Shown piece after piece: positions 41,397-64,000 of a DNA stretch of 64,000 bases; within the stretch, counting starts at the first letter, position 1; each line of letters starts with the position of its first letter. The stretch spans positions 224,001-288,000 of the forward strand of contig CAVYSY010000038.1 of the NCBI GenBank assembly GCA_963771175.1, read 5' to 3'. This DNA comes from an uncultured delta proteobacterium. GTDB lineage: Bacteria; Myxococcota; Myxococcia; Myxococcales; Myxococcaceae. Under the pieces are notes generated by a model. It did no database searches. It worked only from the letters and a program-made list of their open reading frames with translations, and was not told the origin of the DNA. The position numbers and the translations under genes were made by a program.

Positions 41397-41596
41397 GCCT
41401 TCACCTCGCTCGCGTCCGGCCCGGCCCGGGCGCCTCATGGGCGCCTCGACGCTCCTCCAGTCATACCCTCGGAGCAAACACGAGACCCGGCCGTGCCCGT
41501 GCCCGGCCACGCGTCGTCCCCACCAGCGCGCAGGACGGCTTCGGTGCTCGTCCGCCCGGCGAAGTAGCCGGCGCACTTCACGGCCGAGCAGTCCCG

Positions 41597-41633
41597 AGGC
41601 CGGTCCCATTCACGGGGCCGGCCTTTTCGTTTT
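41597..41633 (+). terminator. Intrinsic terminator with no obvious upstream plus-strand CDS
   Basis: AGGCCGGTCCC-ATTCAC-GGGGCCGGCCT followed by TTTCGTTTT. Confidence 0.65.
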
Positions 41634-41802
41634 CCAGAAGCACGGGCATTTGACGGAGGCACCGCATGTTCCGGAAGACGCGTGGTGACAATCCAACGCT
41701 CAGGCGCGTTTCCCCTTTCATGACGCGGAGCGGCACCTGCCTATCGTCGGCGCCCTCTCCCCTGCCGTTGTCAATCAACCCAAATCCACCGTCGAGGTCC
41801 GA

Positions 41803-43331
<1,529 letters not shown>

Positions 43332-45643: not shown

Positions 45644-46903
45644 CTACCTCGCCGCGGGCAACCGCACCTCGAAGGTGCTGCCCTTGCGCTGCTCGGGCAC
45701 CAGCGCCACCGTGCCGCCGTGCCGCTCCACCAGCCGCCGGCACAGCGCCAGGCCCAGCCCCGTCCCGTTCGCCTTCCCCGTCACGAAGAGGTCGAAGAGC
45801 CGCTCGCGCACCTCCGGCGCCACTCCCGGCCCGTCGTCCTCCACGCGCACCCGCACCGCGTTCCCGTCCGACTCGGCCGCCAACCGCACCTCGCCCGCCC
45901 CCTGCGCCTGCGCCGCGTTCTGCAGGAGGTTGGCGAACACCTGTCTCAGCCGTCCCGCGTCCCCCTCCACCAGCGGCAGCTCCGGGAAGCTCCGCCGCAC
46001 CTTCACCGCCGGGAACGCCACCTCCGTGGCCCTCGCCGCCTCCTCCAGCACCTCGGACAAGGAAATCCGCTGCGCGGCCAGGGGTCGGTCCGCGCTCAGG
46101 TCCAGCAGGTCCTCCGTCAGCCGGCGCAGCCGCTCCACCTCGCCCAGCACGTCCTCCAGCGCCTCCTTGTCCCGCTCGGAGAGCTTCATCCCGCTGCGCT
46201 CGCGCATCAGTTCCACCGTGCCCCGGATGACGCCCAGCGGGTTGCGGATTTCGTGCGCGGCCATGGCCGCCATCTTCGTCAGTGCCTCGCCCCGGGCCGC
46301 TCGTGCCGCGGCCTCGCGCCGGGCCCGCTCGTCCCGCAGCCACCGCGCCGCCACCAGCGCGAGCGCCAGTGCACCCACCGCCGACAGCGCCACTCCGCCC
46401 CACAGCGCGCGCCGCAGCGCATCGCGAGCGCTGGAGAAGGCCCGCCCCGCCTCCATCACCAACACCGAGTCCACCCGCCCCTCGGCCCCGCGCACCGGAA
46501 AGTAACCCACCGACACCTGGAGCTCGCCCAGCGAGTAGCCCGGCCCCACTCGCGTCTCTCCCGCGAGCGCGGACTCCACTCCCGCCGGGTCCGTGCGCAG
46601 CAGGTCCACCCGACGTCTCGCCGGCCCGGTGGCGTCCGCGGGCACCGCCAGTTTCCGGTCCACCACGTACACCCCATCCAGCGCGTTGGCCCGCATCAGC
46701 GCCTCCAGCCGCTCGGACGTGGCCGGCGTGTCCCTCAACAGCAGCGCCGCGGATTCACCCGCGCCCCGCAGCCGCGCGTCCAGCGACTGCTCCAGCGCCG
46801 CGCTCCCCGCGCGATAGAGGGCCAGCGTGGCCGCGAGCGCCCCCACCAGTCCGAGGGTCGCCAGGCCCAGCGGGCCCACTGCGCGCGAGCCGGGCCGCGA
46901 CAT
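45644..46903 (-). CDS. Membrane sensor histidine kinase
   Basis: Two TM segments, AHEIRNPL, NLLQNA, DDGPG, GTGLGL. Confidence 0.92.
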   Translation of the reverse strand: MSRPGSRAVGPLGLATLGLVGALAATLALYRAGSAALEQSLDARLRGAGESAALLLRDTPATSERLEALMRANALDGVYVVDRKLAVPADATGPARRRVDLLRTDPAGVESALAGETRVGPGYSLGELQVSVGYFPVRGAEGRVDSVLVMEAGRAFSSARDALRRALWGGVALSAVGALALALVAARWLRDERARREAAARAARGEALTKMAAMAAHEIRNPLGVIRGTVELMRERSGMKLSERDKEALEDVLGEVERLRRLTEDLLDLSADRPLAAQRISLSEVLEEAARATEVAFPAVKVRRSFPELPLVEGDAGRLRQVFANLLQNAAQAQGAGEVRLAAESDGNAVRVRVEDDGPGVAPEVRERLFDLFVTGKANGTGLGLALCRRLVERHGGTVALVPEQRKGSTFEVRLPAAR

Positions 46904-48279
46904 CAGTACAGCCCCCGGGACCACACCAGTCCCAGCCCTCCGACGAAGCGACCGTAGGAGAGCTCGGCGATGTTGGAGGTCGCCCCCCGCCAGCCCACCG
47001 AGGCCAGGAGGCTCCAGTTCCTCGACACGTCCCACTCCAACGCCGCGCCGGCATCGAGGTAGTCGTCCTCGCGGCGCGCCCCCAGAGGGTTGTCGAAGTT
47101 CTCGTAGTCGCGCAGGGTGTAGCTCACATCACCCACGAAGCGCAGCCCGGGACGCAGGCGCACGCGCAGCCCGGCGCGCGGTCCGTGCTCGAGGTAGCCG
47201 AGCGCCAGGTCGTACGCCCGGAGGTGGCCGCCGGACCAGCCCGCCGAGAGCGTGAGGAGCTCGGCGGGGCTCCATTCCGCATCCAGCCGGGCCGTGTTCC
47301 TCCAACCGTCATAGCCGGTGTACGCGCTGGCCAGGAAGTCCTCGCGGCGCACGTCCCACGAGCCGTCCAGCACCACCGGGCCCACGGGCGCGCGCGCGGC
47401 CACCTGCAGCCGGAGGGCTCGCAGGTAGGGCGCCCCTCCGAGCGACAGGTAGTCGAAGCCGTACTCCGCGGTGAGCTGCGCCGCCGAGCCCAGGTGCGCC
47501 CAGCCCAGCGTGCCCCCGGCCCCGGCCAGGTCGAAGTCGTGGAAGCTCAGGTGGCCCCGGTACTGCCCGGAGACGCGCGCATAGGGGCCGCGCTGACCCC
47601 AGGGGCGCAGGCGCAGCTCGGCGAGTCCCAGGCCCACTCCATCCGCGTTCCCCGACTGCAGCCGCGTGCCGTCCGGCGCGAGGTCCACGTTGGAGTCGTA
47701 CTCGCTCCCCAGCCGCACCGAGAGCGTCACCCGCCCCTCCCGCCCGGCTCGCAGGCGCAGCTCCTCGGCGCGCCTCGCCAGCCCCGCGTCCGACGAGGCC
47801 GCCGCCGTGGTGAAGAACGCGCTGGCCTCGCTCGCGCGCCCCTCGCGCAGTGCCATCAGCCCAAGGAAGAAGGAGGCGGTGTCCGCCAGCTCCGGCTCGG
47901 CGAGGACCTGACGGAAGGAGGCCGCCGCGGCCTCGTCCTCGCCCCGCTCGAAGAGGGAGAGCCCGGAGAGCAGCGCCGCCGCCGCGTCGTCCTCGCGGGG
48001 CGCCGTGTTCTCTCGCGGAGTGGCCGGGGACTTGGAAGCAACGGGCTTCTCGCGGCAGAGCGCCTTCAGGGCCGCTCGCGCCCGGGCGTTGCCCGGTTCC
48101 CTCCGCAGTACCTCGCGCCAGGCGACGAGGGCCGTCTCCCTGTCTCCAGCGGCCTGCTCGGCCTCGGCTACCTCCACGTAGGGAGCGGCGGCGGCCGGGT
48201 CCGGCGTGGCGTCCGGCGTCACGGGACCGCAGAGGCCAGACTCGGCGAGCAGCGCGGCCACGAGCAGGCCCGCACTCAC
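46903..48279 (-). CDS. TPR plus outer-membrane beta-barrel protein
   Basis: GTG start overlapping the upstream stop; TPR helices; GSEYDSNV barrel start. Confidence 0.7.
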   Translation of the reverse strand: MSAGLLVAALLAESGLCGPVTPDATPDPAAAAPYVEVAEAEQAAGDRETALVAWREVLRREPGNARARAALKALCREKPVASKSPATPRENTAPREDDAAAALLSGLSLFERGEDEAAAASFRQVLAEPELADTASFFLGLMALREGRASEASAFFTTAAASSDAGLARRAEELRLRAGREGRVTLSVRLGSEYDSNVDLAPDGTRLQSGNADGVGLGLAELRLRPWGQRGPYARVSGQYRGHLSFHDFDLAGAGGTLGWAHLGSAAQLTAEYGFDYLSLGGAPYLRALRLQVAARAPVGPVVLDGSWDVRREDFLASAYTGYDGWRNTARLDAEWSPAELLTLSAGWSGGHLRAYDLALGYLEHGPRAGLRVRLRPGLRFVGDVSYTLRDYENFDNPLGARREDDYLDAGAALEWDVSRNWSLLASVGWRGATSNIAELSYGRFVGGLGLVWSRGLY

Positions 48280-48908
48280 GGAGTCCCTCCGCCGACGAGG
48301 GGCGCGGGCAGCTCGGACAGCGCGCTCAACCCGGCGCGGGCCTCGGCGAGCCGGTAGCGGTCCTCGCGCTTCTGGGCCAGCCGCACCGCTTCCTCCAGGT
48401 AGCGCGCGGCGAGCAGCGGGCGCCTGGCCGAGCGGGCCTGGGTGGCGCGCCCGTGGTACCAGTCGATGGAGGACGGCACCGGCGCCGAGCGGAAGAGGGC
48501 GCTGATGTCCTCGCGCAGCTTGCGCACCTGCTCGCCAATGCGCGGCCCCGAGGCATCCCCCACCGCGTCGAGAAGCGTGTCCGCGCACAGGTACAGCTTC
48601 GCCTCGTAGCAGGCGAGCGCGTGGTAGTAGTCGAGCAGTGCGTCGCGCGCGTCCGGGGCGCTCTTCTGGGCGGCGGCGAAGGCCTCCAGCGCCTCCTCGG
48701 AGCGGCCGAGCTTCACCAGCGACGCGGCGATGTACCAGTCCGCCTCCCCCCCCGAGCCCAGACGCTGGGCCACCTTGAATTCCACCAGGGCGTTGGCGAA
48801 ATGGCCCTCGCGGAAGTGGCGAGCGCCCTGGAGCAGGTGGGGCGTGGAATCCGGCGGAGTGGCCGCCGTGAGTCCAAGCAGGGCGAGGCACAACGCGAGG
48901 CGCTTCAC
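48276..48908 (-). CDS. Secreted TPR-like protein
   Basis: VKRLALCLALLG signal peptide; helical repeats. Confidence 0.7.
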   Translation of the reverse strand: MKRLALCLALLGLTAATPPDSTPHLLQGARHFREGHFANALVEFKVAQRLGSGGEADWYIAASLVKLGRSEEALEAFAAAQKSAPDARDALLDYYHALACYEAKLYLCADTLLDAVGDASGPRIGEQVRKLREDISALFRSAPVPSSIDWYHGRATQARSARRPLLAARYLEEAVRLAQKREDRYRLAEARAGLSALSELPAPLVGGGTP

Positions 48909-48921
48909 GCGAGGCCTTCTA

Positions 48922-49399
48922 TCACGGGTGGCGGAAGGGTGCCGGCTCCGACGCTCGCCCGTTCCCCGGCTTGTCGGGCTTGGGCTCCTTGCTCTTCCGC
49001 ACCGTCTCGGCTCGAGAGCGGCCCGCTGCGTCCTGCGCATCCGAGCCCACTCCCGCCGCTCCCAACGCCGCCGAGCGAGCGGCCTTGATGCTCGCCCCAG
49101 ACGAGGCCCGCTCGCTCGCGTTCGCGGCGCGCTCCGAGGCCTCACGACGGGACTTCTCGGCGGCCTCACCGCGGGTACGGGTCGCGTCGCGACGAGCACC
49201 ACCCGCGGCGGTCTCCCGGGCCGACTCGGCCACCGGGGACTCCGCCTCGGGCAGGCGGGGGCGCTGCTCCGGGAGCGTGGCCTGCACCTCGAGCGCCTGG
49301 AGGATGGCGGCCCGAGGCTCCTCACGGCGCGGCGACTCCTCGGCGGCGGCCCCGAGGGCCCACAGCGAGAATGGCGAGGAGGATGAGGGAACCGCGCAT
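48922..49399 (-). CDS. Secreted low-complexity protein (frameshifted)
   Basis: MRGSLILLAILAVG signal after GGAGG RBS; continues in ORF 48922-49287. Confidence 0.5.
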
Positions 49400-49445
49400 G
49401 ACTGCCTCCACGACGCGCCCGGGGGAGGGCTCCAACGAGGAGCCT

Positions 49446-49545
49446 AGCATTCCTCGTGCCTGACGCTGGTTCCTCGGGAGCGGGGGTGTCGGGTAGCGGC
49501 GCATGCCCCAACCGGGACACCCGGGTGTACCGGCTGGTACACCCG
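49446..49545 (-). promoter_or_regulatory. Sigma54 promoter with upstream activator dyad
   Basis: Minus strand CAGGCACGAGGAATGCT (GG-N10-GC) at 49462-49446; dyad CGGGTGTACC-GGCT-GGTACACCCG at 49522-49545. Confidence 0.6.
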
Positions 49546-49577
49546 TAGGGGCAAGGCCGTCGGGCACCGCGACAGGA

Positions 49578-50195
49578 CTAGGAGCTTCGCTTCGCGATGG
49601 GTTCGGCGGCCTTCAGCCGCTCCACGGTCGCCGCGTACACGGGGCCCAGCGAGTCGAAGTAGTCGCTCCAGCTCGATGTCTTGCTTTTCGACAGGTAGAG
49701 GTCCAGCGTGGGCAGCGCCGCTTCACGGTCATGGAGCACTTGCCGTAGCAGCTCGAGCTGCACATGGGGCGTGAGCGCGAAGGCATTGACCTCGTGCCCG
49801 ACCGTGATGAAGGTGCGCTCGACGGCCTCGTACTCCGCCTGCGAGCGCGAGAGGACGCCGACATGGCGCTCGCTCGAGGGTGGACCGCCCTCGCCGTAGC
49901 GATGCCCCTCGCAGCTCGTATAGGTGATGAGGCCGTGGTGCCGGGCGACGACGACGACGAGGTCGCGCACGCCCTCCTCGACGAATTGCTCGAACTGGGG
50001 GTGGAGGGGAGGCAGGATGCTCGCCGGCAGCTCACCGGCCCCACCGGCGTTGTTGATGTTGCCGTAGTCCGATTTGCGCAAGGAATACTCGACCCGGTTG
50101 GCCATGGCCCGGGGATCGTCCCACTGCTCCATGAGGTCGCGGGCCCCGTCCAAACGGTTGACGAGCCGCCTCCCTCCTCTATCGAGCTCTTTCAT
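49578..50195 (-). CDS. Unknown protein with TYTSCEGH motif
   Basis: Intact ORF with GGAGA RBS; no family recognised. Confidence 0.7.
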   Translation of the reverse strand: MKELDRGGRRLVNRLDGARDLMEQWDDPRAMANRVEYSLRKSDYGNINNAGGAGELPASILPPLHPQFEQFVEEGVRDLVVVVARHHGLITYTSCEGHRYGEGGPPSSERHVGVLSRSQAEYEAVERTFITVGHEVNAFALTPHVQLELLRQVLHDREAALPTLDLYLSKSKTSSWSDYFDSLGPVYAATVERLKAAEPIAKRSS

Positions 50196-50351
50196 CGTTG
50201 TCTCCGCCAAGGCTCACGAACCGGCGCATACCAGTCGAGTGCTCACCTTACCGTGGCACAATCTCGATTGTATAATCACTCTCAACAGCAGAAGCAATAC
50301 AGCCGGTGCGGTGTCGAGCGAAGACATCCGTGAGGAAGGACGCCTCCGAAT

Positions 50352-51009
50352 TCAGGGCCGTCGAGCCAATTCCTCGAGCGCTTCGGCAACCACACCTTCC
50401 TCGATGGCCTCCATGCTCCCGGCACCGGTGATGTGGCGATGGTGCTTCGTCACCCGGAAGCCCCAACGCTGCTCGGAGGTGGGCCCGAACAACCCGACCG
50501 ACGGCAGCCGAAAGAAGTCCGCGGCGTGCAGCATGCAGGAGTCCACTCCGAGGAATGCGTCACAAATCCCCACCAGCGCCATGGCCGGCGGAATCGCAAT
50601 CCCCGAGGCGGCCAGAACCTGCTTCCCCCGGGGGATGGACTCCAGTCCGCGATCCGCCAGGTCCAGGACGAGCACGAGCCACTCAGGGTGGCGTGTGAGA
50701 AAGGCATTCAGCACACGCTTGAAGCTTTCCAACGGCCATTGCTTCGAGGGAGCCGTCTCGGTATGCACCGCGAGCACCCTGCTCCACGACGACGTGTGTT
50801 TGCTTCATCTCCGCGCGCACCGCGCGGACCTCCCGCAGCGGCAGGCCCGAGTAGAAGAGCTGCTCATCTCCCGGGGCGCCCACGACCCTCAGGCGGCCAG
50901 AGTACAGCTCGGAGAGGGCACGCACGGCCGGCAACGCCAGGAGGCGATCTCCGGTGCCGTTGACGTGGAAGACCACGGGCGCACGGGCGTTTCGAAGTGG
51001 GCCGTCCAT
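50352..51009 (-). CDS. Glycosyltransferase family 9-like protein (frameshifted, apparently internally shortened)
   Basis: GTGDRLLALPAVRAL, SKQWP, FLGVDSCMLHAA, VGLFGPT...WG; only ~220 codons. Confidence 0.75.
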
Positions 51010-51020
51010 GATGCAATGGC

Positions 51021-53460
51021 TCACTCGCTCCTGATGGCGATGATGGGGTCCACGCGCGAGGCCCGGCGCGCGGGCATCCACGTGGCCAGCAGGGCGATGA
51101 TGCCCAGCAGCAGCGCGAGCGAGCCGAAGGTGAGCGGATCCCTCGTGCTCACCCCATAGAGGAGGCTCTCCATGAAGCGCGACAGGCCGAAAGCCCCGGC
51201 GAGCCCGGCGCCCACGCCCAGGGCGGCCAGCAGCGCCCCCTGGCGCATCACCAGCTTCACGACGTCCGAGGGCTGCGCGCCCAGGGCCATCCGGATGCCG
51301 AGCTCTCGCGTGCGCTGGGAGACGGTGTAGGAGATGACGCCGTAGAGGCCCGCGGTGGCGAGCACCAGGGCGATGACGGCGAAGGCTCCCAGCAGCACCA
51401 GGTTCATCCGGCGCGCCACCATGGAGCGCGAGATGATCTCCTCCATGGTGAACACCTCGGCGATGGCCAGCTCCGAGTCCACGGACTTCACCGCCGCCCG
51501 CAGCGCGGAGGCGCCGGCCGTCGAATCCACCGTCGTCCTCACCACCAGGAACACGTCCTGGAGACCAAAGGGGTTGGCCCCGGCCTGGTTGTAGGGCAGG
51601 TCGATCTCCGGGACAGGCTTCCGGTCCAACCCACCCTGGCGCACGTCGCCCACCACGCCGATGACGGTGGCGGACTGCCTCATGAACGTCAGCCGCCGGC
51701 CCACCGCTTCGCCCTGGCCGAAGTGCCGCTGGGCCAACGCCTGGTTGATGATGACCACGAGCTCCCCCTGGCCATCCTGCTCGGTGAATTCGCGCCCGGC
51801 CAGCAAGGGAATCCCCATGGCCTTGATGAGGCCCGGACTCAGGGCGCGGAACTCCGCCATTGGATCCTTCCCCGGTTCGGGCTCCGGCTCCCCCTCGACG
51901 GTGTAGCTGGTGGTGAGGGACCCTGGATGGATGGGGAGCAGCGAGGTGAGCCCCACGGACTGCACGCCGGGCTGAGAGCGCAACTGCTCCAGGACGGGCT
52001 GGAAGACGCGCTGGGGGGCCTCCGCGAGCGGGTACTTGTAGGTGGGCACCGACATGCGGGCGGTGAGCACACCGCGCGCGTCGAAGCCCGGCGCCTCGTT
52101 GAGCAGGGTGATGAAGCCACGCATCATCAGCCCGGCGCCCACCAGGAGGATGAGCGACAGGGCCAGCTCACCCACCACGAGCCCACCACGGAAGCGGTGT
52201 TGCGCCCGCGACGACGAGGCCTTCGTCCCGGACCCGCCGAGGCTGGCGCGCAGGTCGGTGCGAGTGACCTGCAGCGCCGGGAAGAGCCCGAAGAGCACCG
52301 AGCTGCCCGCGGCCACCAGCAGCAGCAGGCCGAAGACGTTGCCCCGCAGCGAGATGTCGCCGAGCAGCGGCAACGAGCGCGACACCAGGCCCTCCAGCGC
52401 ACTCACGCCCCAGGCCGCCAGGAGCGCTCCGAGCACCGCGCCCGCCAGCGACAGCACCAGGCTCTCCACGAGCATCTGCCGGATGAGGCGGGACCGGCTC
52501 GCGCCAAGCGCAGCCGGACGGCCATCTCCTTGCGGCGCGCGGCCCCCTGGGCGAGCAGGAGGTTGGCCACGTTGGCACAGGCGATGAGCAGCACGAGCAG
52601 CACCGTGCCCTGGAGGATGAGCAGCACGGGCCGCACCTTCCCCATCACCGTCTCCGTGAGCGGCACGGCCGTGGCGCTGCGCCCGGCCAGGTCGTTCGGG
52701 TAGGCCTCCTGCAGACGGGTGACGAGCTGGCGCAGCTCGGTGTTGGTGGCCTCGAGGCTCACCCCGGACTTGAGCCGGCCGATGACGTTCAGGAAGCGCG
52801 AGCCCCGGGCCTCGGCGTTCGGGCCCGTGACGGAGAGGGGGATGAACAGGTCCATCTGCGTCTGCGTGCCCGCGGGGAACTGGACCGCGGTCGGCAGCAC
52901 GCCGATGACCGTGTAGGGCAGCCCATCCAGCGTCAGGCTCTGGCCGAGCAGCGCGGGGTTCTCGCCGAAGCGCCGCTTCCAAAGCCCCTCGCTCACCACC
53001 ACCACGGGCGCGCTGCCGGGGGCATCCTCTCCCGGGGAGAAGCCACGGCCGAGCCGCGGCTCCACGCCGAGCACCTGGAAGAGATTGGCGGAGACCTCGG
53101 CGACGCGCAGCCGCTCGGTGCCCTCGCTCCGCCCAGGTTACGGCTCTTGAGGGTGTAGGTGGCGAGGCCTTCGAGGCTCTGGAGCTGCTGCGCCCAGTCC
53201 CGGACGTTGGGCCAGGAGGCGGACTCGCGCAGGTTGGGATCTCTCTGGGGCACCGTCTCGAAGAGGCGCACGAGCCGCTCCGGCTCCGCGTACGGCAGCG
53301 GGCGCAGGAGCGTGGCGTCCACCACGCTGAAGATGGCCGCGTTGGCGCCGATTCCCAGGGCCAGGCACAGCACCGCCACCGTGGTGAAGCCCGGGCTCTT
53401 GCCCAGCCTGCGCAACGCGAAGCGGACATCCCGGCTCAGGTCATCCATCCAGCTCGTCAT
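51021..53460 (-). CDS. Duplicated MacB/FtsX-type ABC permease (frameshifted)
   Basis: [54 protein letters not shown]. Confidence 0.9.
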
Positions 53461-53550
53461 TCCACGCACCCCTTGGGCAGGACCCACCATGGCCTCGGTC
53501 CTCTCCGGACATGCCGGGCAGCTCGATGGAGCAAGGCCTTCAGCAGCCTA

Positions 53551-53895
53551 CTACGTGTTGCGCTCCAGCTCCGCGCAGGTCTCGGCCGTGCCGGCGCACG
53601 GCACGGTGTCGAGCTGCCTGAGGCGCTCCAGCTCCGCGCAGGCCTCGGGCGTGCCGGCGCACGGCTCGGTGGTGCCGAGCTGCTTGTTGCGCTCCAGCTC
53701 CGCGCAGGCCTCGGGCGTGCCAGCGCACGGCTCGGTGGTGCCGAGCTGCTTGTTGCGCTCCAGCTCCGCGCAGGCCTCGGGCGTGCCGGCGCACGGCTCG
53801 GTGGTGGACTCCGACGTCACGAGCTCCTCCGGACCACAGCCCGTGGCGAGGACCGTCAATCCCAGGGTGGCAAGCAGCAGGCACGGCTTGAGCAT
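53551..53895 (-). CDS. Lipoprotein with four 22-aa Cys-pair repeats
   Basis: MLKPCLLLATLGLTVLATGC lipobox; GGAGAG RBS; repeat unit TTEPCAGTPEACAELERNKQLG. Confidence 0.8.
   Translation of the reverse strand: MLKPCLLLATLGLTVLATGCGPEELVTSESTTEPCAGTPEACAELERNKQLGTTEPCAGTPEACAELERNKQLGTTEPCAGTPEACAELERLRQLDTVPCAGTAETCAELERNT
53554..53806. repeat. 66-bp coding tandem repeat, about four copies
   Basis: GGCCTCGGGCGTGCC recurs at 53641, 53707 and 53773; a diverged fourth copy lies near 53575. Confidence 0.95.
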
Positions 53896-53978
53896 GTGCA
53901 TCTCTCCGGTGAGGGTACGAAGGGTCTGAAGCACTATCATCCAGCAATTCAGGGAAAATTGGAATGAAAGGGGGAGTC

Positions 53979-56106
<2,128 letters not shown>

Positions 56107-56127
56107 GGTGAGCACGTGCGGCGAAGT

Positions 56128-56658
56128 CTACTCGCGGAGGAGATGGACGAGGTACTTCCGGGGGGGCGTCCACACCTGCACCTTGAGCGGCAACGGCGCG
56201 GAAGGGGCCGGGAGGGCGGGGTCGGGGGCGAGCAACACCTGGAGGCAGGACGCCTGCTCCGGGGGCGAGGAGGCCTGCAAGAAGGCCCGGGACTCGCGGC
56301 TGCACGGGCCGGTGGAGAGCTTGGAGATCACCCCCCGCGAGCGCTCCGCCGAGCCCGCGAAGCGGAACTCGAGCGTATCGCCGGGACGCAGGTGCTCGGC
56401 GGCCGTCGGCTCCAGGGAGAGCTCGAGCCCCTGACCCCGCGCGGGGGCGTCTTCCACCAGGGCGACGAACATCGGCTGGAAGTCGAGCCGTGACAGCGCG
56501 AAGCCAAGGAGCGCCATGAGGAGCAGGGGGACCAAGGTCACCAGCCGCAGCGACAGCGGACGCAGCAGGCTGATCTCCCCGAGGTGACGCACTCGGCGGT
56601 GGTTGAGCGCCTCGTACCTGAAGAGAGGCCGGCCTTGAACGGGGGGCTCGGGTTTCAT
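56128..56658 (-). CDS. Short HlyD/CvaA-like accessory protein
   Basis: LFRYEAL...GEISLLRP plus TM segment as in CvaA-type N-termini; no coiled-coil hairpin. Confidence 0.65.
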   Translation of the reverse strand: MKPEPPVQGRPLFRYEALNHRRVRHLGEISLLRPLSLRLVTLVPLLLMALLGFALSRLDFQPMFVALVEDAPARGQGLELSLEPTAAEHLRPGDTLEFRFAGSAERSRGVISKLSTGPCSRESRAFLQASSPPEQASCLQVLLAPDPALPAPSAPLPLKVQVWTPPRKYLVHLLRE

Positions 56659-56700
56659 GATCGTCACCAATCCGTGGGCAAGCGCCGGCCCCCCGACGGC

Positions 56701-57855
56701 TCAGGCACCCTGTGCCGTCAGCCGGGCACGCAGAGGACGGGAGAGGGCAAGGCCCAGCTCGCTCAGCCCCACCTCGCTCTCGATGGGGACGCGCAGTTGT
56801 TCCATGTACGCGACAATCGTGCTCTGGCGGCTGGAGATCTCCTTCTGAAGCCCCATGGCGCGGAACTTCTCGAAGGCGATGAGCGCGTTGCCGAAGGCAT
56901 GATAGCCGATGAGGATCCGGTCGAGGGGGCGCTCGCACTTCTTGAGGGGCGAGTAATGCGGCCTGGCCTCGGGCGTCACGAACGAACCGACCCAGCTCGC
57001 CATGTGGAAGTACTGGTGCGAGCACTCGTGAATCATCATCTCCGCCGTCTCCGTGGGCGTGGCCGGCACGCACAGGTCGATGCCGCCGAAGCGGCGCGGC
57101 GAGGAGCCGCTGGCGATCATGTTCCAGTCCGGACGGCGGATGGGAGTGATCTCCTTGAGCAGACAGAGGACCCAGGCGCGATACTCCGGCATGGCCCGGC
57201 CCATCAGCTCCAGGGCCTCCTCGAACTGGGCGACCGCTCCCTGATTCACGACCGCCGCGGGCTGGCTGAGCTCATCCAGAAAGGTCGTGTGCCACTCGGC
57301 ACCCACCACGCGGATGGTGGGCTGACCGTCGACCCGGACGAACGAGGACTCCGTGCCGGCTTCAGCCCACACGGGGCTGCCGTTGCGCTGGGCGATGACC
57401 GAGAACGACCGGGGGGCGGTAGCGCCCTCGGCCTGGATCGTCATCCGGTCGGCTCCACCCCGGATGGAGAGACGCGCGGCGGGGACGAGCTGGCCGGCCA
57501 CGAAGAGAGGCGCGTTCGTCTCGACGTCGAGCTCGAGCTCGGAGGTCACTCCCGTCACGTGCGCGCTGAGGGAAATCTGGGCCCGGAGCCAGTTCCAGTC
57601 GCCCTCCGTGAAGGCCTGCTTCGACAGGCCGTTGAAGATGATCGCCACCTCCGGCGTCCAGTAGGCCGTGTTCGCCCCCCGCTGGGCGAGCCGCTGGGCG
57701 ATGTCGGCGAGCCGGGCGTCCTGGCTGTAGCCGTGCTGCTCGGCGAGGCGAATCGCCCGGCGACAGAAGACCCGGAACTGGTTGGTGGCAAGCTCGGCCG
57801 TCAGGGCGGCGTAATCGCCCTCGAAAGGATTGGACAGTCGGTTGAAGATTTCCAT
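56701..57855 (-). CDS. aKG-HExxH family peptide-modifying enzyme
   Basis: SGSS...FGGI, EMMIHECSHQ, YSPLKKCERPL..ILIGYHAF. Confidence 0.85.
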   Translation of the reverse strand: MEIFNRLSNPFEGDYAALTAELATNQFRVFCRRAIRLAEQHGYSQDARLADIAQRLAQRGANTAYWTPEVAIIFNGLSKQAFTEGDWNWLRAQISLSAHVTGVTSELELDVETNAPLFVAGQLVPAARLSIRGGADRMTIQAEGATAPRSFSVIAQRNGSPVWAEAGTESSFVRVDGQPTIRVVGAEWHTTFLDELSQPAAVVNQGAVAQFEEALELMGRAMPEYRAWVLCLLKEITPIRRPDWNMIASGSSPRRFGGIDLCVPATPTETAEMMIHECSHQYFHMASWVGSFVTPEARPHYSPLKKCERPLDRILIGYHAFGNALIAFEKFRAMGLQKEISSRQSTIVAYMEQLRVPIESEVGLSELGLALSRPLRARLTAQGA

Positions 57856-57859
57856 GGGC

Positions 57860-59170
57860 TCACTCGATGACGGGCAGTTCCATTGAATTGGCTTCGGGAA
57901 TCTGAATCTCGGCGGGAGCCGCGCCCAGGGTCACGGGCCGCAGGAAGTCCCGGGCCCAGAACTCGGGCTTGCGCGAGAGCACCTGCGACAGGCGCTCGAC
58001 GCCGTTCTCCCGCCTGGCCACGATGGCGGCGATCGCGGTGTGGATGGTGTCCAGCGTCTCGCAGAAGACCGAGGGTTGGTCGAAGCCGGACCCCTTCTGA
58101 TAGCGATTGAAGAGCTCTCCGGAGCGGCAGGTCCGGAACCAGTCGCAGCTCGCACACTTCTCGGGGGCCTTGTCGACGGCCCGCACGAGCTGCTGCCACA
58201 TGGGGCTGCCGAGGAACTGCGCGAGGGTGGTGTTGCGGACGTTGGTGTCCGCGTTGAAGAGCGCCTTGTCGAGCGCCATGATGTTGTCATCCATCCCGAG
58301 CTTGCCATCGCCGGAGATGGTGATGATGTGGTGGCGGGTGGAGCGCCTGAAGTCCATCCGCTGGGCGCCGGCGTCCGAGATCATCGCCGACATGATGTCG
58401 GAGAGGAGCTGGATGGTGACCAGCCGGCCGATCTTCTTGGGCGTCGTCTGCCAGTACTTGATGATCTCGGTGAAGTAGGCGACCCACTTGCTCTGGGGCT
58501 TCCAGACATCGCTGTCGTAGCCTTCTCGCGGCAGCAGGATGTTGAAGTTGTCGATGCCGAGATCCTCGACGAAGTGCCGGACGACCTCTTCTCCGCTGTG
58601 ATTGGGATTGGCCACGCAGAGGATGCCCGTGGCGCGGTTGCGCCCGGCACGCACCCCCTCCTGGAGCAAGCGCAGGCCCCTCACCGTGGCCTCGTAGCTC
58701 CCCTTCCCCTTATGATCGGGGCGGGCCGCGTCGTGGATGTGGGGCGGGCCATCCAGGCTCACTCCCGCGGCCACCTGGTGCTCGGCGAAGAGCGAGACCC
58801 ATTCCTGGTCGACTCGCGTCCCGTTCGTCTGGAGCCCGAGGTGGACGTTCGTCACATCCGAGAGCTCTTCGCGGAGGATGCGGCAGATGGCATCGAAGCG
58901 CTTCTTCGGCATCAGCAGGGGCTCGCCACCGTGCAGGCCGATGTAGAGGTGCTGGATGTCCATCTCCTGCACACCGCGGCGTAGGAACGCGGCGACGTCT
59001 CGGATCGTGGCCTCGGAGATCAGGGCGGGACTGCTCTTGTAGAGATCGTTTTCCTGAAAAAAGTAATAACAGTACGGGCACGCCAGGTTGCACCGCTCCG
59101 CTATCTTGAGGACCACGTCCAGACAATTGGCCCACTCTCGAGGTTCTCTGCGCATCCTCGCCTCACTCAT
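57860..59170 (-). CDS. Radical SAM/SPASM peptide maturase, triceptide (cyclophane-forming) type
   Basis: KIAERCNLACPYCYYF, HGGEPL, QTNG, SLDGP, DGKLGMDD, C-x2-C-x5-C-x21-C. Confidence 0.88.
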   Translation of the reverse strand: MSEARMRREPREWANCLDVVLKIAERCNLACPYCYYFFQENDLYKSSPALISEATIRDVAAFLRRGVQEMDIQHLYIGLHGGEPLLMPKKRFDAICRILREELSDVTNVHLGLQTNGTRVDQEWVSLFAEHQVAAGVSLDGPPHIHDAARPDHKGKGSYEATVRGLRLLQEGVRAGRNRATGILCVANPNHSGEEVVRHFVEDLGIDNFNILLPREGYDSDVWKPQSKWVAYFTEIIKYWQTTPKKIGRLVTIQLLSDIMSAMISDAGAQRMDFRRSTRHHIITISGDGKLGMDDNIMALDKALFNADTNVRNTTLAQFLGSPMWQQLVRAVDKAPEKCASCDWFRTCRSGELFNRYQKGSGFDQPSVFCETLDTIHTAIAAIVARRENGVERLSQVLSRKPEFWARDFLRPVTLGAAPAEIQIPEANSMELPVIE

Positions 59171-59185
59171 CCTGGGTTGCGGTGC

Positions 59186-59232
59186 AAAAAGCGGCCAGCC
59201 GCCGCGGGGTTGAGTCCACTGCGTCTGGCCGC
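59186..59232 (-). terminator. Hairpin plus U-tract between precursor and maturase
   Basis: GCGGCCAG (59191-59198) pairs with CTGGCCGC (59225-59232); AAAAA at 59186-59190 reads as U5 on the minus strand. Confidence 0.65.
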
Positions 59233-59248
59233 CTACAGCGAACGACTA

Positions 59249-59464
59249 CTACTCCATCTGCTCCAGCTCCTTACCGAGCGAGCCGTGCGCGGAGCCGTGG
59301 CCGGAGAGGTGGCCCGAGGCGTGCGCGGCGGCGGCGCTCACCGCATCCAGGTGCACGTCCATGAGCTCCACCAGCTCCTGGTCCGCGACGACCAGGTTCT
59401 TCTCCGAGGCGCCATCGAGCTTCGCCTTCAGACGGTCCGCCAGGGTCGAGAGGTTGTTATCCAT
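59249..59464 (-). CDS. RiPP precursor peptide with four HxS motifs
   Basis: AAGGAGG RBS; leader ...ELMDVHLDAVSAA; core AAHASGHLSGHGSAHGSLGKELEQME; directly upstream of the rSAM gene. Confidence 0.85.
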   Translation of the reverse strand: MDNNLSTLADRLKAKLDGASEKNLVVADQELVELMDVHLDAVSAAAAHASGHLSGHGSAHGSLGKELEQME

Positions 59465-59999
59465 ATCGCTTCCTCCTTGGTGTGGCTGTGTGTGGGGGGT
59501 GCGGCGACAACATCACCGTCTCCAAGGTCATCAACGCGATTTCCCTGAAGAAGATGACTAACATTAAACTTTGCAAGTCATTCAGCCTGCTTGTCAAGTG
59601 CCTAAGAAAAAATAACACACACCTGGAATGTCGACTATTCGGCAGTTCCGGCTTGACAAGTCGCACGGAATGAGGGCTAAGGCTCCGCGCGGCCCACCGC
59701 GTGGCTCCAGGCTTCGGACCCGCCGCCGCCGGTGGATGCGCGGTACGCGAGCAAAGGCAGACACGGCAGCCCAGGGCCGCTTCCCCAGTCTACGTGCGCG
59801 CACTGCGACAGGGAAGGTGCCCCGGCTGGTGCGAGCCTTTGGCGAGGGCCGCTACTCCTGGCTCAGTCCCCAATCTGGACGAAAGTGAGCGCAGCCGCCG
59901 TCGCCGGGCGACACCCCGTCCCAGCAGGCCGACCGCTCCGCTTGCCTCCGGTGGCACCGTGACGCGCCGCGCTCCGGGCGCGCGGGAATCGGGGCAGGC

Positions 60000-60356
60000 T
60001 CAGTCTCGGGGGGGGGCGTCCGAGCCGGGCATCGGAATCTCCTCGCCCCGAAGGCGTCCTCGGAACACCGCGGCCCGCATCAGGAACAGGGTGGTGACCG
60101 GCGCGGTGAGCGCGATGAACACCGCGATGAGCAGCGCATGAAGGTAGAGCTGGCCGCGTTCGTAGGAGACCTGCACCGCCGTCGCGAGCGCGAAGCCCCA
60201 GGTGCCCAGCGTCGCGCCCAGGGTGGGCGCGTGGACGCGCTGGAAGAAGCTCCTCAGGCGCAGCACCCCGAACGAGCCGATCAGCGCCGCCAGCGCCCCC
60301 CCCACCACGAGCACCGCGGTCAGCGCATCCACCCACGGAGGAGTCCACCCGTTCAT
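60000..60356 (-). CDS. phaG: Mrp/Pha antiporter subunit G
   Basis: GSFGVLRLRSFFQRVHAPT, LTAPV. Confidence 0.9.
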   Translation of the reverse strand: MNGWTPPWVDALTAVLVVGGALAALIGSFGVLRLRSFFQRVHAPTLGATLGTWGFALATAVQVSYERGQLYLHALLIAVFIALTAPVTTLFLMRAAVFRGRLRGEEIPMPGSDAPPRD

Positions 60357-60631
60357 TCGATGACCTCCCCGCGCAGGAGGAACTTGGCCATCGCCGTGGA
60401 GCCCACGAACCCGAAGAGGGCGATCAAGAGCGCCGCCTCGAAGTAGGAGCTGCTGCGATAGACGAGCCCCAGCGCGAGGATGACCAGCATCGCGTTCAGG
60501 TACAGGCAGTCGAACGCCAACACGCGGTCCTCCGCCCTGGGCCCGACAATCATCCGTGCCAGCGCCAGCACCATCGCGAGGGCAAGACAGCCAAGGGCGA
60601 ATGCCAGCGACCAGGAGAGCAGAGGGCTCAT
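60353..60631 (-). CDS. phaF: Mrp/Pha antiporter subunit F
   Basis: GPRAEDRVLAFD, FGFVGSTAMAKFLLRGEVIE. Confidence 0.9.
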   Translation of the reverse strand: MSPLLSWSLAFALGCLALAMVLALARMIVGPRAEDRVLAFDCLYLNAMLVILALGLVYRSSSYFEAALLIALFGFVGSTAMAKFLLRGEVIE

Positions 60632-61115
60632 TCGAAGATCTCCCTGAGCGGACGCTCGTAGTGATGCTTGATGAAGGTCACCAGGTTCGTCTCGCTCTGA
60701 ATGGCGAGCACGTGCAGCAGCAGGACGCGGTTGTCCGCCGACAACTGCGCCCAGGCGGTGCCCGGCGTGAACGTGACGATCATCGCCAGCACGGCCAATC
60801 CGTTCGGATCCTTCAGCTCGAGCGGAATGAGCACGAAGCCGGAGCGGATGTCGCGCGAGCGCTGGGTGAGAATCGCCCACGCCACCTCGGCGTTCGACCG
60901 CAGCATCTCGAGCACCACCCGGCAGAACAGGCGAGCCAGGAGGAGGGGCCTGCGCAACCGCACGGGGGTGGGCCGAGCCCGACGGTCACCGCGGGCCAGA
61001 ACAGCGCCAGGGCGGCGCCCAGCACCAGCGTCCCCGCGTCCAACGACTGCATGAGGAGAATCCAGAGCAGGAGCAGCGCCACCGAGAGCGCGGGAGAAGG
61101 AAGGAGCCGCCTCAT
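60628..61115 (-). CDS. phaE: Mrp/Pha antiporter subunit E (frameshifted)
   Basis: IVTFTPGT, LLLHVL, YERPLREIFE. Confidence 0.88.
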
Positions 61116-62755
61116 CGCCCCGCCTCCGGCGCCGTGGCGGGCGGCCGCACCTCTGCTCCGAGGACCGCGTCGATGTACCCGCGGCGGTCATAGAGGGACT
61201 GGGCCGTTGCGCGCGCGAGCTCCATCGCGGGTCCCGCCGCGAGCGTCAGCACTCCGCACGCGGTGAGGAGCACCACCAGGGACAAGCCCTCCGGCGCCCG
61301 GACCCGAGGGGGCTCGCGCTGCATCTCGGACCAGAAGGTCCGGATTCCCGTCCGCGTGAGCGCGATGAGGGTGAGCAGGCCGCAGCCCAGGAGCACCGCC
61401 GGTGAACAGCCATGCACGGGCGGAGACTGGCCCGCTCCTCCCGGGCGACCCGAGCGCCGCCGACAACATGCCGAGCTTGCCGATGAAGGTGGACAGCGGA
61501 GGCAGGCCGGAGATGAGCAGTGCGCACGCGATGAAGGCCAGGCCCAACAGCGCGGTGGAGGCGGGGAACGGCAGGGCGACGAGCGGCTCCTCCTCGTCGT
61601 CGAGGTTGACCTCCTGCGTCTCGAGCGTCGCGCTCAAGAAGGGCGCCTCGTCCACCACGGTCGCACCCGCACGCCACCGCTCGACGAGGTCGACGAGCAG
61701 GAAGAAGGCGCTGGAGGCCAGCGTGGAGCTCACCAGGTAGAACACCGCGCGGCCGAGGACGGCTTCCTCGCCCAGGCCCAGCGCCGCCAGGAGCGTCCCG
61801 GCGGAGACCATCACCCCCGCCGCCGCCTGGACCGCGAGCCTCTGCGAGGCGATCATCCCCAGGGCCGCGAACACCGCGGAGACCACTCCGAACGCGAGCA
61901 GCCCGTCCGAGCCGAACCCCGCCAGCGGCCCCCCGGCGAACATCAGCGTCCAGAGCCGCACCAGGGCGTAGACGCCGACCTTCGTGAGCACCGCGAACAT
62001 CGCCGCCACCGGCGGAGTCGCCGACGCATAGGCGGGGACGAGCCAGAAGTTGAGCGGCCAGGCCGCCGCCTTGGCCAGGAACGCCACCGCGAGGATGGCC
62101 GCTCCCGCGTCGATGAGGTGCCGGTTGGCCACATTCTCCTGGGACAGGCGCGCGGAGAGCTCCGCCATGTTGAGCGTCCCGGTGACGCCGTAGATCATCG
62201 ACACGCCGATGAGGAAGAGCGACGAGGCGGCGAGGTTCACCGCCACGTAGTGCAGGCCCGCGCGGACCCGCGACTTTCCGGAGCCATGCAGCAACAGGCC
62301 GTACGAGGCGGCGAGGAGAATCTCGAAGAAGACGAAGAGGTTGAAGACGTCCGCCGTCAGGAACGCGCCGGAGAGCCCCATGAGCTGCAGCTGGAAGATG
62401 GGGTGGAAGTGAACGCCCGCGCGGTGCCAGCGCGTGAAGGCGAAGGAGAGCGCGCAGGTGCCCAGGATCCAGGTCAGCACCAACATCCCCGCCGACAGCC
62501 GGTCCACCGCGAGGGCGATCCCGAACGGCGCGGGCCAGTTGCCGGGCAGGTAGGCCACGACGCCGTATTCGTTCACCCACGCCGAGCAGCACCACCGAGA
62601 CGGCGAGTCCCAGGAGCGCGGAGATCATCCCCATCAGCAGCTTCGCCGGGCGGCGCCCCTCGCCCAGGAGGAGCATCACCGCCGCGGTCAGCATCGGCAG
62701 GAGGATGGGCGCCACCATCAGGTGGGGCATCAGGGCCTTGGATGAGCGCGCTCAT
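61112..62755 (-). CDS. phaD: Mrp/Pha antiporter subunit D (frameshifted)
   Basis: GNWPAPFGI, DVFNLFVFFEILL, TKVGVY, GLPPLS. Confidence 0.9.
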
Positions 62756-63094
62756 GGCTCGGTGCCGTCCACGTGATCCGTCCCGGTCATCCCGCGCGAG
62801 GCCAGGATGATGACCAGGAGGAGCGCCGTCATCGCGAAGCTGATGACGATGGCCGTCAGCACGAGCGCCTGCGGCACCGGGTCCGTGTAGTGCGCGAGAT
62901 CCGGCGGGACGCCGTCCACGAGGATGGGCTCCTTGTCGATGGCCAGGCCGCCAATGCTGAAGATGAAGAGGTTGACCGCGTAGGAGAGCAGCGACAGGCC
63001 GACGACCAGCTGGAACGTGCGCGGGCCGCAGCAGCAGCCAGACGCCAGAGCCGGTCAGGATGCCGATAGCGATCGCGAGCACCACCTCCATCAA
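62752..63094 (-). CDS. phaC: Mrp/Pha antiporter subunit C (frameshifted)
   Basis: GVWLLLRP; shifted frame DPVPQALVLTAIVISF...DHVDG. Confidence 0.88.
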
Positions 63095-64000
63095 TCACCT
63101 CCCGAGGCCCGGTGCGCGCGGATGCGACTGGTGCGCGAGCGCCACGAGGATGAGCAGCGTGGCGCCCAGCACCAGGCAGAACACGCCCAGGTCGAAGAAC
63201 ACCGCGCTCCCAAGGTGGAGCTCGCCCAGCACCGGCACGTTCAGATGGAAGGTGTGCGAGGTGAGCAGCGGGTACCCGACCACGAACGACTCCCGACGGC
63301 CGTGCCGAGCACGAACAGGAGGCCGACCGCCATCATCGCGCGCGGCGCGAGGTCGCAGCCGCTCCTCGACCCACTCGGTCCCGGACACGAGGTACTGCAG
63401 CAGGAAGCCCACCGACATCACCAGCCCCGCGACGAACCCACCGCCCGGCGCGTTGTGCCCACGCAGGAAGAAGAACACCGCCACCACTCCCGACACGGGC
63501 AGGAGCAGCCGGATCAGCACCGCGGGGACCTCAGGTACCCCACCGCGGTGTCTCTGCGCCTGGCGCGGGTTCACCAGGTCCGTCTGCAGGTCCGCCGGCA
63601 GCGCGCTGCTGCTGCGGCGGAAGCGCCATCACCTCGGTCGCCGGCCGGAAGCGGCGCAGGAGCGCGTAGACGGTGAGCGCGACGAGCACCAGCACCACGC
63701 CCTCGCCGAAGGTGTCGAACCCGCGGAAGTCCACCAGCATCACGTTCACCACGTTCCGCCCGCCTCCGCCGCTCAGCGCGTGCTCGAGGAAGAAGGAGGT
63801 CCGCTCGGGGAGCTCGCGCGTCATCACCGCGTAGGCCAGCACCGCCATCCCGCAACCGGCGCCCAGCGCGATGAGGAAGTCGCGGGCTCGCCGGCCCCGG
63901 GCGATCCGCAGGGTGTGCGCGTCGTAGACGCCGCGCGCCGGCTCTCGCGGCGGCAGCCACCGGAGCCCGAGCAGGATGAGCAGCGTCGTCACCACCTCGA
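63095..64000 (-). CDS. phaA: Mrp/Pha antiporter subunit A/B, 3' part (frameshifted; 5' end outside the window)
   Basis: GGRNVVNVMLVDFRGFDTFGE, RGHNAPGGGFVAGL, FFDLGVF. Confidence 0.9.

Follow-up and report, generated by a model that had tools for sequence, protein, structure and literature searches.

A 64,000-nucleotide stretch of contig CAVYSY010000038.1 (positions 224,001 to 288,000 of the forward strand; assembly GCA_963771175.1) from an uncultured delta proteobacterium assigned to the Myxococcaceae, here termed the window, was analyzed for a candidate cluster directing the biosynthesis of a peptide made on the ribosome and modified after translation. Listing of open reading frames (ORFs) combined with profile scans identified nine co-oriented genes on the minus strand between positions 49578 and 59464, encoding in order a precursor peptide, a radical S-adenosylmethionine (rSAM) enzyme, an HExxH protein, a mini HlyD-like protein, a C39 peptidase-ATP-binding cassette (C39-ABC) exporter, a lipoprotein, an ADOP/MacB-like permease, a GT9-like glycosyltransferase and a protein with a TYTSCEGH motif (Table 1). 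A plot of third-position G+C content (GC3) agreed with the called frames across this interval, with values of 0.8–1.0 throughout, as expected for real genes given a genome of approximately 70% G+C. Gene order and orientation were those proposed in an initial annotation made from the DNA sequence, as was the location of the cluster between a pha operon and a sigma54 operon, which was confirmed by profile matches in both flanks. That annotation made no mention of the interrupted reading frames in three of the nine genes, a point taken up below. Gene identities and order, conservation of the precursor and the repeated occurrence of the gene set across other phyla were all observed with the tools used, and the interpretation developed from them is that of a triceptide (three-residue cyclophane) pathway.

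Table 1. Features of the cluster and of other parts of the window (coordinates in nucleotides, position 1 being the first letter of the window).
Feature	Coordinates	Strand	Basis or remark
Precursor peptide, 71 amino acids (aa)	59249-59464	-	ORF; no Pfam/NCBIfam match
GC hairpin then TTTTT, terminator-like	59191-59205	-	Between precursor and rSAM gene
rSAM maturase, 436 aa	57860-59170	-	NCBIfam XyeB best, PF04055
Alpha-ketoglutarate-dependent (aKG)-HExxH-type enzyme, 384 aa, motif HECSHQ	56701-57855	-	TIGR04267
Mini membrane-fusion (HlyD/LcnD-like) protein, 180 aa	56128-56670	-	Model fold; no family match
C39 peptidase-ABC exporter (PCAT, peptidase-containing ABC transporter, type)	53979-56115	-	Pfam; one frameshift
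Frame change in ABC gene	~54232-54269	-	After LSGGQKQRILL signature
Cys-repeat lipoprotein, 116 aa	53551-53901	-	ORF and tandem repeat; no family match
66-bp tandem repeat in lipoprotein gene	53556-53806		3.8 copies, 93% match
ADOP duplicated FtsX/MacB-like permease	51021-53490	-	TIGR03434; three frames
Frame breaks in ADOP gene	near 53000-53074 and 52403-52451	-	GC3 frame plot and profile pieces
GT9-like glycosyltransferase, ~245 aa if read through	50352-51081	-	PF01075; two frames
Frame break in GT9-like gene	near 50683-50777	-	GC3 frame plot and profile pieces
SCEGH-motif (TYTSCEGH) accessory protein, 210 aa	49578-50210	-	ORF; no family match
AT-rich stretch upstream of precursor	59540-59640	-	TTGACA-like and GGCAC...GCA-like elements
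Mrp/Pha antiporter operon	60003-63998		PhaG/MnhG, MNHE, other Mrp/Pha subunits
Tetratricopeptide repeat (TPR)-like protein	48276-49004	-	Lipoprotein-type N-terminus
Histidine kinase	45647-47128		Left flank
Sigma54 activator	40044-41609		Left flank
Aldehyde dehydrogenase	41689-43328	+	Split over three frames
Outer-membrane beta-barrel gene (OMP_b-brl_4)	30631-34223	+	Split over two frames
Fatty-acid desaturase, S37 peptidase	8599-8955, 15967-16494	+	Fragments only

The precursor gene is preceded by an AGGAGG ribosome-binding site 7 nt ahead of its ATG and ends 78 nt upstream of the point at which the rSAM gene starts. The core of the encoded peptide consists of four H-x-S-x units (HASG, HLSG, HGSA and HGSL) followed by a GKELEQME tail, and its leader carries a conserved ...ELVELMDVHLDxVS[AG]A sequence. 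This run was the sole match to a pattern of at least three H-x-S-x units followed by H-x-S in a six-frame translation of the whole window, and the pattern was found in none of the 79 loci listed in the comparison described below. A search of 5.8 billion proteins returned a family of 14 protein clusters, comprising that of the precursor itself and 13 further clusters at 56–90% identity, among them annotated proteins of Archangium sp. and Corallococcus sp. H22C18031201/Citreicoccus inhibens. When the 14 family clusters were aligned together with a peptide from a Verrucomicrobia locus (n = 15), the His/Ser pairs at positions 52/54, 56/58 and 60/62 were invariant or at least 90% conserved, while the first unit (48/50) was missing from some family members. 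The family cores held three to five H-x-S-x units with variable +1 and +3 positions, and a tail of the form xG[KRQ]xxE was conserved after the last unit. The HxS-repeat precursor initially proposed was borne out, both by its four units and by family-wide conservation of the His and Ser residues. Every core His has a Ser at +2 and the first His is often without a Ser at -2, indicating a conserved register His1-X2-Ser3 which reads as the aromatic-X-X register of triceptides. Counted from the conserved V-S-[AG]-A of the leader, hydrophobic residues fall at -4, -7, -12 and -15, a spacing that would fit a double-glycine leader of the kind processed by C39 domains.

The terminator-like hairpin between the precursor and rSAM genes is one of four such sites in the region. 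Since shuffled sequences are expected to yield 3.7, the terminator scan is not significant by itself; the hairpin may represent an attenuator, a role for which only its placement is suggestive. Upstream of the precursor gene an AT-rich stretch with promoter-like elements was observed (Table 1), and a sigma-70 promoter scan returned no sites in the interval 49300–60000.

The rSAM protein matched PF04055 with 55.5 bits. Among NCBIfam models it scored highest against XyeB (TIGR04496; 292.7 bits, cut-off 450), followed by YhhB (NF041707; 217.2, cut-off 445), FxsB (TIGR04269; 199.0, cut-off 370), the anaerobic sulfatase maturase anSME (134.1), GrrM/OscB (TIGR04261; 111.8, cut-off 310) and HxsB (71.4, cut-off 370). 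In a PDB search the closest solved structure was the rSAM domain of ChlB (9gm3, E = 1.3e-29), anSME being found at E = 2.2e-22. With XyeB, YhhB and FxsB outscoring anSME, and the ChlB domain doing so among solved structures, the initial assignment to cyclophane-type enzymes rather than sulfatase maturases was supported. The CX3CX2C triad C27/C31/C34 and the residues C339/C342/C348/C370 (CX2CX5C plus a distal Cys) were invariant in all 24 aligned sequences. A protein search in which 7999 candidates were scored gave 1643 relatives at E≤0.001. The closest among the matches listed were 80–81% identical, the best such cluster holding proteins of Archangium sp. and of Myxococcaceae metagenome-assembled genomes (MAGs), and further relatives were found in Haliangium ochraceum (Hoch_3007, 64% identity), Acanthopleuribacter pedis (51%) and Shewanella piezotolerans (48%). 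For 23 relatives spanning 35–81% identity XyeB was in every case the best model, at 212–343 bits, with none of the 23 reaching 450 bits and none meeting any other NCBIfam cut-off, which places the rSAM enzyme in a large clade, as yet without a name, within the cyclophane-synthase superfamily. On these scores the cluster would fall within that broad superfamily and yet in no curated family, and its rSAM enzyme is predicted to be a cyclophane-type maturase forming three-residue cyclophanes on H-x-S.

A different chemistry on the H-x-S units was also considered, either a +8 Da change like that of the HxsA protein or a Ser oxidation of the sulfatase-maturase type. Another rSAM system, HxsB/HxsC, takes HxS repeats as its substrate and gives a product with a +8 Da change (PMC13128918), and the enzyme described here still scores 134 bits on anSME while meeting no cyclophane-family cut-off. 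Such chemistry nevertheless appears very unlikely: the cyclophane families score far above both HxsB and anSME, the nearest solved structure is a cyclophane synthase domain, profile scans found no HxsC, HxsD or HxsA-like protein in the cluster, and enzymes of a related class are known to close an HAS motif into a cyclophane (PMC12912966). Assignment of the cluster as a His-Xaa-Ser (HXS) system was likewise rejected, with HxsB far below its cut-off and no match to HxsA, HxsC or HxsD for any of the 13 cluster pieces scanned against NCBIfam.

The third gene was initially described as encoding an aKG-HExxH enzyme, and this held up, TIGR04267 matching its product at 65.7 bits (cut-off 40) and the HExxH motif being invariant. 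Residues H276, E277, S279, H280, Q281, K305, R309, H319 and N323 were conserved in all five homologues, and PDB chain 22nu_A matched over the HExxH region (E = 1e-4). For the putative C39 exporter, collinear matches were obtained to Peptidase_C39 (113.5 bits), ABC_membrane (126.9 bits) and ABC_tran (72.6 bits). The N-terminal piece of this gene scored 363.1 bits on NHLM_micro_ABC1 and the tail piece covered profile positions 627–690, the ATPase being split by one frameshift located at CTCCGCGCGCGCGCTG, in a CG-repeat context.

The gene between these two had been termed HlyD-like. No Pfam or NCBIfam match was obtained for its product at E≤1, and its family of 19 representatives, 17 of which are 157–205 aa long, included no full-length HlyD among the matches. 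The protein has an N-terminal FRxEA motif, and its AlphaFold2 (AF2) model (predicted local distance difference test score, pLDDT, 88.8) comprises a helix at the N-terminus, a single transmembrane helix and a single beta-barrel. The best PDB folds were barrel domains of MacA (E = 5.3e-3), EmrA, Spr0693 and HlyD, within a range of 5e-3 to 5e-2 and with no PDB match at or below 1e-3; an Atlas feature search gave short LcnD_C/HlyD clusters at 0.94 and 0.92, which serve as a lead only. Only the barrel resembles those of MacA, EmrA and HlyD; the protein is a 180-aa mini-form of its own family and matches no HlyD model. From the modeled fold it is interpreted as the exporter's mini membrane-fusion partner, and by sequence it falls outside the HlyD family.

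Related loci were compared using a set of 79 listed, mostly distant actinobacterial and other rSAM loci (22–36% identity); those of Archangium sp., the Myxococcaceae MAGs, Citreicoccus/Corallococcus sp. H22C18031201 (DRW03_13575), Haliangium ochraceum, Acanthopleuribacter and Shewanella piezotolerans lie outside this set. Only four of the 79, one each from Luteibacter (L001) and Verrucomicrobia (L002) and two from Massilia (L003 and L004), contain an rSAM enzyme at least 35% identical to that of the cluster, and it was exactly these four in which tblastn detected homologues of the HExxH protein. The Verrucomicrobia locus (rSAM 45% identical) encodes a 62-aa peptide (...HLEMIAAA-HLDI-HNSA-HQSV...), with one H-x-D and two H-x-S units, just upstream of its rSAM gene, followed by the rSAM enzyme, an HExxH protein, a 188-aa mini fusion protein, a carbamoyltransferase and an Asp/Asn beta-hydroxylase-like protein; its C39-ABC and ADOP permease genes adjoin each other directly upstream of the other cluster genes. 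The Luteibacter locus (36%) encodes a double-glycine (GG)-leader peptide with the core GYSQWSASHNKD..., an rSAM enzyme, an HExxH protein, a 133-aa mini fusion protein, a C39-ABC exporter, a GT9-like protein and a DUF6895 protein, with two FtsX permeases upstream of the cluster. In the first Massilia locus (L003) two rSAM genes and two GG-leader peptides are accompanied by HExxH, GT9-like, mini fusion and C39-ABC genes, and the second (L004) has an rSAM gene together with two genes for HExxH proteins. Three of the four loci contain cognate peptides, and in three a C39-ABC gene adjoins the rSAM gene; GT9-like homologues were present in two (L001 and L003, which are also the only two of the 79 by tblastn), and an ADOP or FtsX permease in two, being ADOP in the Verrucomicrobia locus (the single ADOP match among the 79 by tblastn) and FtsX in that of Luteibacter. 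At E≤1e-4, tblastn found no match to the lipoprotein, TYTSCEGH protein, mini fusion protein or precursor in any of the 79 loci. The core of the cluster is thus conserved across phyla and GT9-like and MacB-type genes recur, with the type of peptide differing by clade. That homologous loci carry a peptide is seen from both the 13 further precursor clusters with conserved H-x-S and the Verrucomicrobia peptide upstream of its rSAM gene.

Three further observations concern these loci. The GG-leader peptides of Massilia (L003, 11558–11725 and 11904–12062) and Luteibacter (9601–9771) share a core GYSQ[WY]..[AW]H[NC]KD and represent another type of precursor that clusters of this kind serve. In the Verrucomicrobia locus the carbamoyltransferase and the Asp/Asn beta-hydroxylase-like cupin (12938–14950 and 15068–15775) replace the GT9-like and TYTSCEGH genes, a replacement which suggests clade-specific tailoring of the same core. 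A DUF6895 protein lies beside the related clusters of Luteibacter (16043–17293, 104.5 bits) and Massilia (L004, 8617–9888) and is not present in the cluster of the window; it represents a further accessory gene that recurs.

The Cys-repeat lipoprotein was recognized as initially described, its signal peptide ending ...LATGC and being followed by 3.8 repeats of a 22-aa unit with two Cys each (C-x6-C), encoded by a 66-bp tandem repeat whose high DNA identity between copies suggests recent expansion. The permease had been called MacB-like; it is without an ATPase domain and probably belongs to the ADOP family of duplicated FtsX/MacB-like permeases. Its pieces matched TIGR03434 at positions 1–106, 121–310 and 329–803 with 116.7, 214.2 and 517.1 bits, respectively, no single piece reaching the 622.3-bit cut-off because of the two frameshifts. 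The name GT9-like reflects a PF01075 match of 42.3 bits (cut-off 22), confined to the C-terminal piece, but the protein is short and its gene frameshifted. The C-terminal piece is 41% identical to the GT9-like protein of the Luteibacter cluster (8e-28), and the N-terminal piece, for which there was no family match, aligned only to residues 27–88 of that homologue (2e-4).

The last gene encodes a protein with the SCEGH motif and of unknown family, as first noted; the family now numbers 25 members in which the TYTSCEGH, GNIN and E..GVR motifs are invariant, and no relevant Pfam domain was found in the 24 members scanned. Its AF2 model has a pLDDT of 89.5 and gave no PDB fold match at E≤0.001 with Foldseek; a PDB profile search gave chance-level matches only (E ~1), and the Atlas search gave weak leads at 0.85–0.88 to DUF6919, MTHFR_C and TYW3. 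A resemblance of TYTSCEGH to a motif of TYW3 methyltransferases is supported by no sequence search and was kept as a lead only; PDB entry 2dvk, a TYW3 homologue, appeared at rank 28 with E = 0.15. The protein was also considered as a small ADP-ribosyltransferase like MicD, for which no evidence was found.

These properties bear on whether only the first five genes, from the precursor to the C39-ABC exporter, form a system, with the other four being unrelated co-oriented neighbors. Neither the lipoprotein nor the TYTSCEGH protein was matched in the 79 loci, the ADOP gene has a G+C content of approximately 0.70–0.72 (GC3 ~0.96) as against approximately 0.64–0.65 for the rSAM, ABC and TYTSCEGH genes, and no function ties the lipoprotein, ADOP, GT9-like and TYTSCEGH genes to a peptide. 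On the other side, a GT9-like homologue is found inside the Luteibacter and Massilia clusters, the C39-ABC gene of the Verrucomicrobia locus has an ADOP homologue as its direct neighbor, and two TYTSCEGH homologues lie on contigs of the same size (9916 and 7564) as those of rSAM homologues of 56% and 60% identity. The Archangium sp. precursor, rSAM enzyme and TYTSCEGH protein (WP_309896468, WP_309896467 and WP_309896460) are all encoded on one 118857-bp contig, and the accession of the TYTSCEGH protein is eight below that of the precursor, a span of nine numbers for nine genes. This suggests, from the numbering rather than from an observed map, that the whole arrangement is conserved and intact in Archangium. 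A five-gene system is on balance unlikely, and the nine genes are treated here as one cluster.

Base composition was examined across the wider region. The cluster (49500–60000) has a G+C content of 0.64–0.70 compared with 0.72–0.76 in the flanks, the ADOP gene being nearer the flank value, and the lower content would fit the gain of the cluster as an island, which may have arrived in several pieces. The next gene downstream, on the same strand, encodes a TPR-like protein, whose Pfam TPR matches were weak and below the gathering score.

The GC3 frame plot and the profile pieces located four frameshifts in three of the nine cluster genes, one each in the ABC and GT9-like genes and two in the ADOP gene (Table 1). 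Together with a GT9-like gene that is shorter than its homologues, these could mark a decaying remnant that yields no mature product, with genuine pseudogenes for the exporter, permease and glycosyltransferase. Frame changes are, however, not confined to the cluster, at least seven being present in the examined parts of the window, where an aldehyde dehydrogenase gene (profile positions 7–140, 135–307 and 305–460) and an outer-membrane beta-barrel gene are also split, and a fatty-acid desaturase and an S37 peptidase were seen as fragments only. GC3 is 0.86–1.00 on both sides of each cluster break, so that the coding signal is unbroken; each piece matches its profile end to end and without stop-rich stretches; and CG repeats surround the ABC break. 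Frameshifts outside the cluster and a coding signal that continues across the breaks indicate indel errors in the assembly rather than cluster-specific pseudogenes. The four frameshifts are accordingly most likely sequence errors rather than decay, and a decaying cluster seems quite improbable.

Taken together, these data probably describe a gene cluster for the biosynthesis of a ribosomally synthesized, post-translationally modified peptide of the triceptide class. In the pathway proposed, the rSAM enzyme would bind the leader of the 71-aa precursor and join the imidazole C2 of each His to the Cbeta of the Ser two residues downstream, giving four rings (H-A-S, H-L-S, H-G-S and H-G-S) at -2 Da each. 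The aKG-HExxH enzyme would then oxidize the ring-constrained peptide, most likely by beta-hydroxylation, or alternatively by oxidative trimming of the conserved xG[KRQ]xxE tail. The C39 domain would cut the leader after V-S-[AG]-A, which reads as a double-glycine-type site, and the exporter and mini membrane-fusion protein would move the core out of the cell. Further tailoring might be added by the GT9-like transferase and the TYTSCEGH protein, with the ADOP permease and Cys-repeat lipoprotein possibly serving envelope export or self-protection.

Several findings weigh against this pathway or parts of it. The rSAM enzyme meets no curated NCBIfam cut-off, so that substrate and regiochemistry are not transferable to it with confidence; only one conserved auxiliary-cluster Cys set, and no second, was present in the 24 aligned sequences, and the Pfam SPASM model gave no match to the enzyme at E≤0.01. 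The X2 residue of the H-x-S units is variable (G/A/L/V/S), leaving no obvious conserved hydroxylation target besides His or Ser, and at the end of the leader there is A-A or G-A in place of G-G. The lipoprotein and TYTSCEGH protein were without tblastn matches in the four closest of the compared loci, and the GT9-like protein is without approximately 120 residues of the N-terminal half of its Luteibacter homologue. If the frameshifts are real, export and tailoring would be lost in this strain. By analogy we infer the chemistry of the rings, the reaction of the HExxH enzyme, the site of cleavage and the export step, and the hydroxylation, glycosylation and secretion envisaged for the product in the initial annotation are predictions of the same kind.

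A more speculative extension, which we regard as doubtful, is that the product represents a new chemotype, namely an exported array of four His-Ser cyclophanes in which imidazoles or newly introduced hydroxyls are decorated by the GT9-like enzyme and by a new enzyme family represented by the TYTSCEGH protein. The GT9 family normally uses an ADP-activated sugar. If the extension were true, decoration by the GT9-like enzyme would echo the ADP-ribosylation of a ring His in minviopeptin, and the rigid imidazole array could act as a metal-binding agent. Alternatively, the product could be a small secreted analogue of HxsA, the antiphage effector with HxS repeats; His-x-Ser repeats would then have been arrived at convergently by two unrelated rSAM lineages.

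Triceptides, which are strained macrocyclic peptides, form a young class that is expanding quickly, and to our knowledge each new triceptide enzyme clade has so far given new ring chemistry useful for peptide engineering. The cluster described here is a well-defined and testable target whose product is predicted from sequence alone, its class and the His-Ser link being already known from elsewhere. Its four same-register H-x-S units would offer a clean repetitive substrate for iterative His-to-Ser ring formation, together with a stand-alone aKG-HExxH partner. In the literature searched, the tandem HxS core, the rSAM clade and the protein with the invariant TYTSCEGH motif are uncharacterized. 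No paper on this rSAM clade was found, nor any naming the Haliangium or Archangium accessions, nor, by titles and abstracts of the papers listed, any on a myxobacterial triceptide, and no precedent was found for the GT9-like transferase and TYTSCEGH family in characterized ribosomal peptide pathways. Published triceptide/ChlB network listings may already hold the clade as an uncharacterized cluster; one of the two papers concerned, on the triceptide landscape and on ChlB, is said to list approximately 3900 putative pathways (PMC11499958). The novelty initially suggested for the cluster accordingly stands insofar as no close characterized match was found for the rSAM clade, but not for the type of ring chemistry, which is already known from minviopeptin.

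Among known systems, xye clusters combine a short precursor containing aromatic-x-x motifs with a C39-ABC exporter and a membrane-fusion-type partner. The cluster described here shares the short aromatic-x-x precursor, the exporter and the fusion partner, and XyeB is the best-scoring family for its rSAM enzyme. It differs in that XyeB/XncB act on Trp/Phe motifs rather than on a tandem H-x-S array, in its 180-aa mini fusion partner, and in its extra HExxH, GT9-like, ADOP, lipoprotein and TYTSCEGH genes. The His-modifying triceptide synthases HaaB, YhhB, HtkB and ScaB form three-residue rings between His-C2 and Cbeta, on HAA, HNR and HTK in the case of the first three (PMC11499958; PMC11002830). 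The X3 residue of these substrates is Ala, Arg or Lys, whereas it is Ser here (HaaB, HtkB and ScaB being compared by description). With ChlB, whose rSAM domain is the closest solved structure, the cluster shares the pairing of a cyclophane synthase with an aKG-HExxH oxidase, but ChlB is an rSAM/aKG-HExxH fusion whereas two separate proteins are encoded here. Enzymes of the aKG-HExxH type hydroxylate Asp and His after cyclophane formation in a ring-dependent manner, with Gln hydroxylation and backbone cleavage described for other members (PMC12636437).

The nearest precedent for the chemistry is minviopeptin, the product of the mic cluster of Mucilaginibacter inviolabilis. MicB links His-C2 to Ser-Cbeta in a HAS motif, as proven by nuclear magnetic resonance, the ring His is ADP-ribosylated on N-tau, an aKG-dependent iron enzyme trims the C-terminus at Gly, and the cluster also encodes a peptidase-ABC transporter (PMC12912966). 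Since this link has been proven on HAS, the class of chemistry proposed here is already known, and both a HAS motif and a peptidase-ABC transporter are common to the two systems. They differ in that MicB, found with the daropeptide synthase PasB as query, acts on YSK, HAS and FTK rather than on four repeated H-x-S units, in that MicC is KdoO-like whereas the oxidase here is an HExxH protein, and in that MicD is an ADP-ribosyltransferase (same source), an enzyme type not recognized in the present cluster.

The HXS system provides the other precedent for tandem His-Xaa-Ser substrates. The HxsA effector carries five HxS repeats, is matured by HxsB/HxsC with a +8 Da change on an SHRSS motif, leaves the cytoplasm after maturation and blocks phage DNA entry, and 99.7% of such systems occur in Pseudomonadota (PMC13128918). 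When eight cluster proteins were scanned with PADLOC, the results were limited to a generic similarity of the rSAM enzyme to pVip and a single match to DpdH at chance level. The two systems share a tandem His-Xaa-Ser substrate, rSAM maturation and departure from the cytoplasm, the last two being predicted for the present peptide. The repeat common to both is noteworthy all the same. They differ in that a single rSAM enzyme, scoring far below the HxsB cut-off, is found here without HxsC or HxsD, and in that the precursor is a 71-aa peptide with no match to HxsA and no peptidoglycan-binding domain, for which C39-ABC export is predicted. The cluster thus provides a second rSAM context for His-x-Ser repeats, unrelated to the HXS effector, and raises the question of why this motif has been chosen repeatedly.

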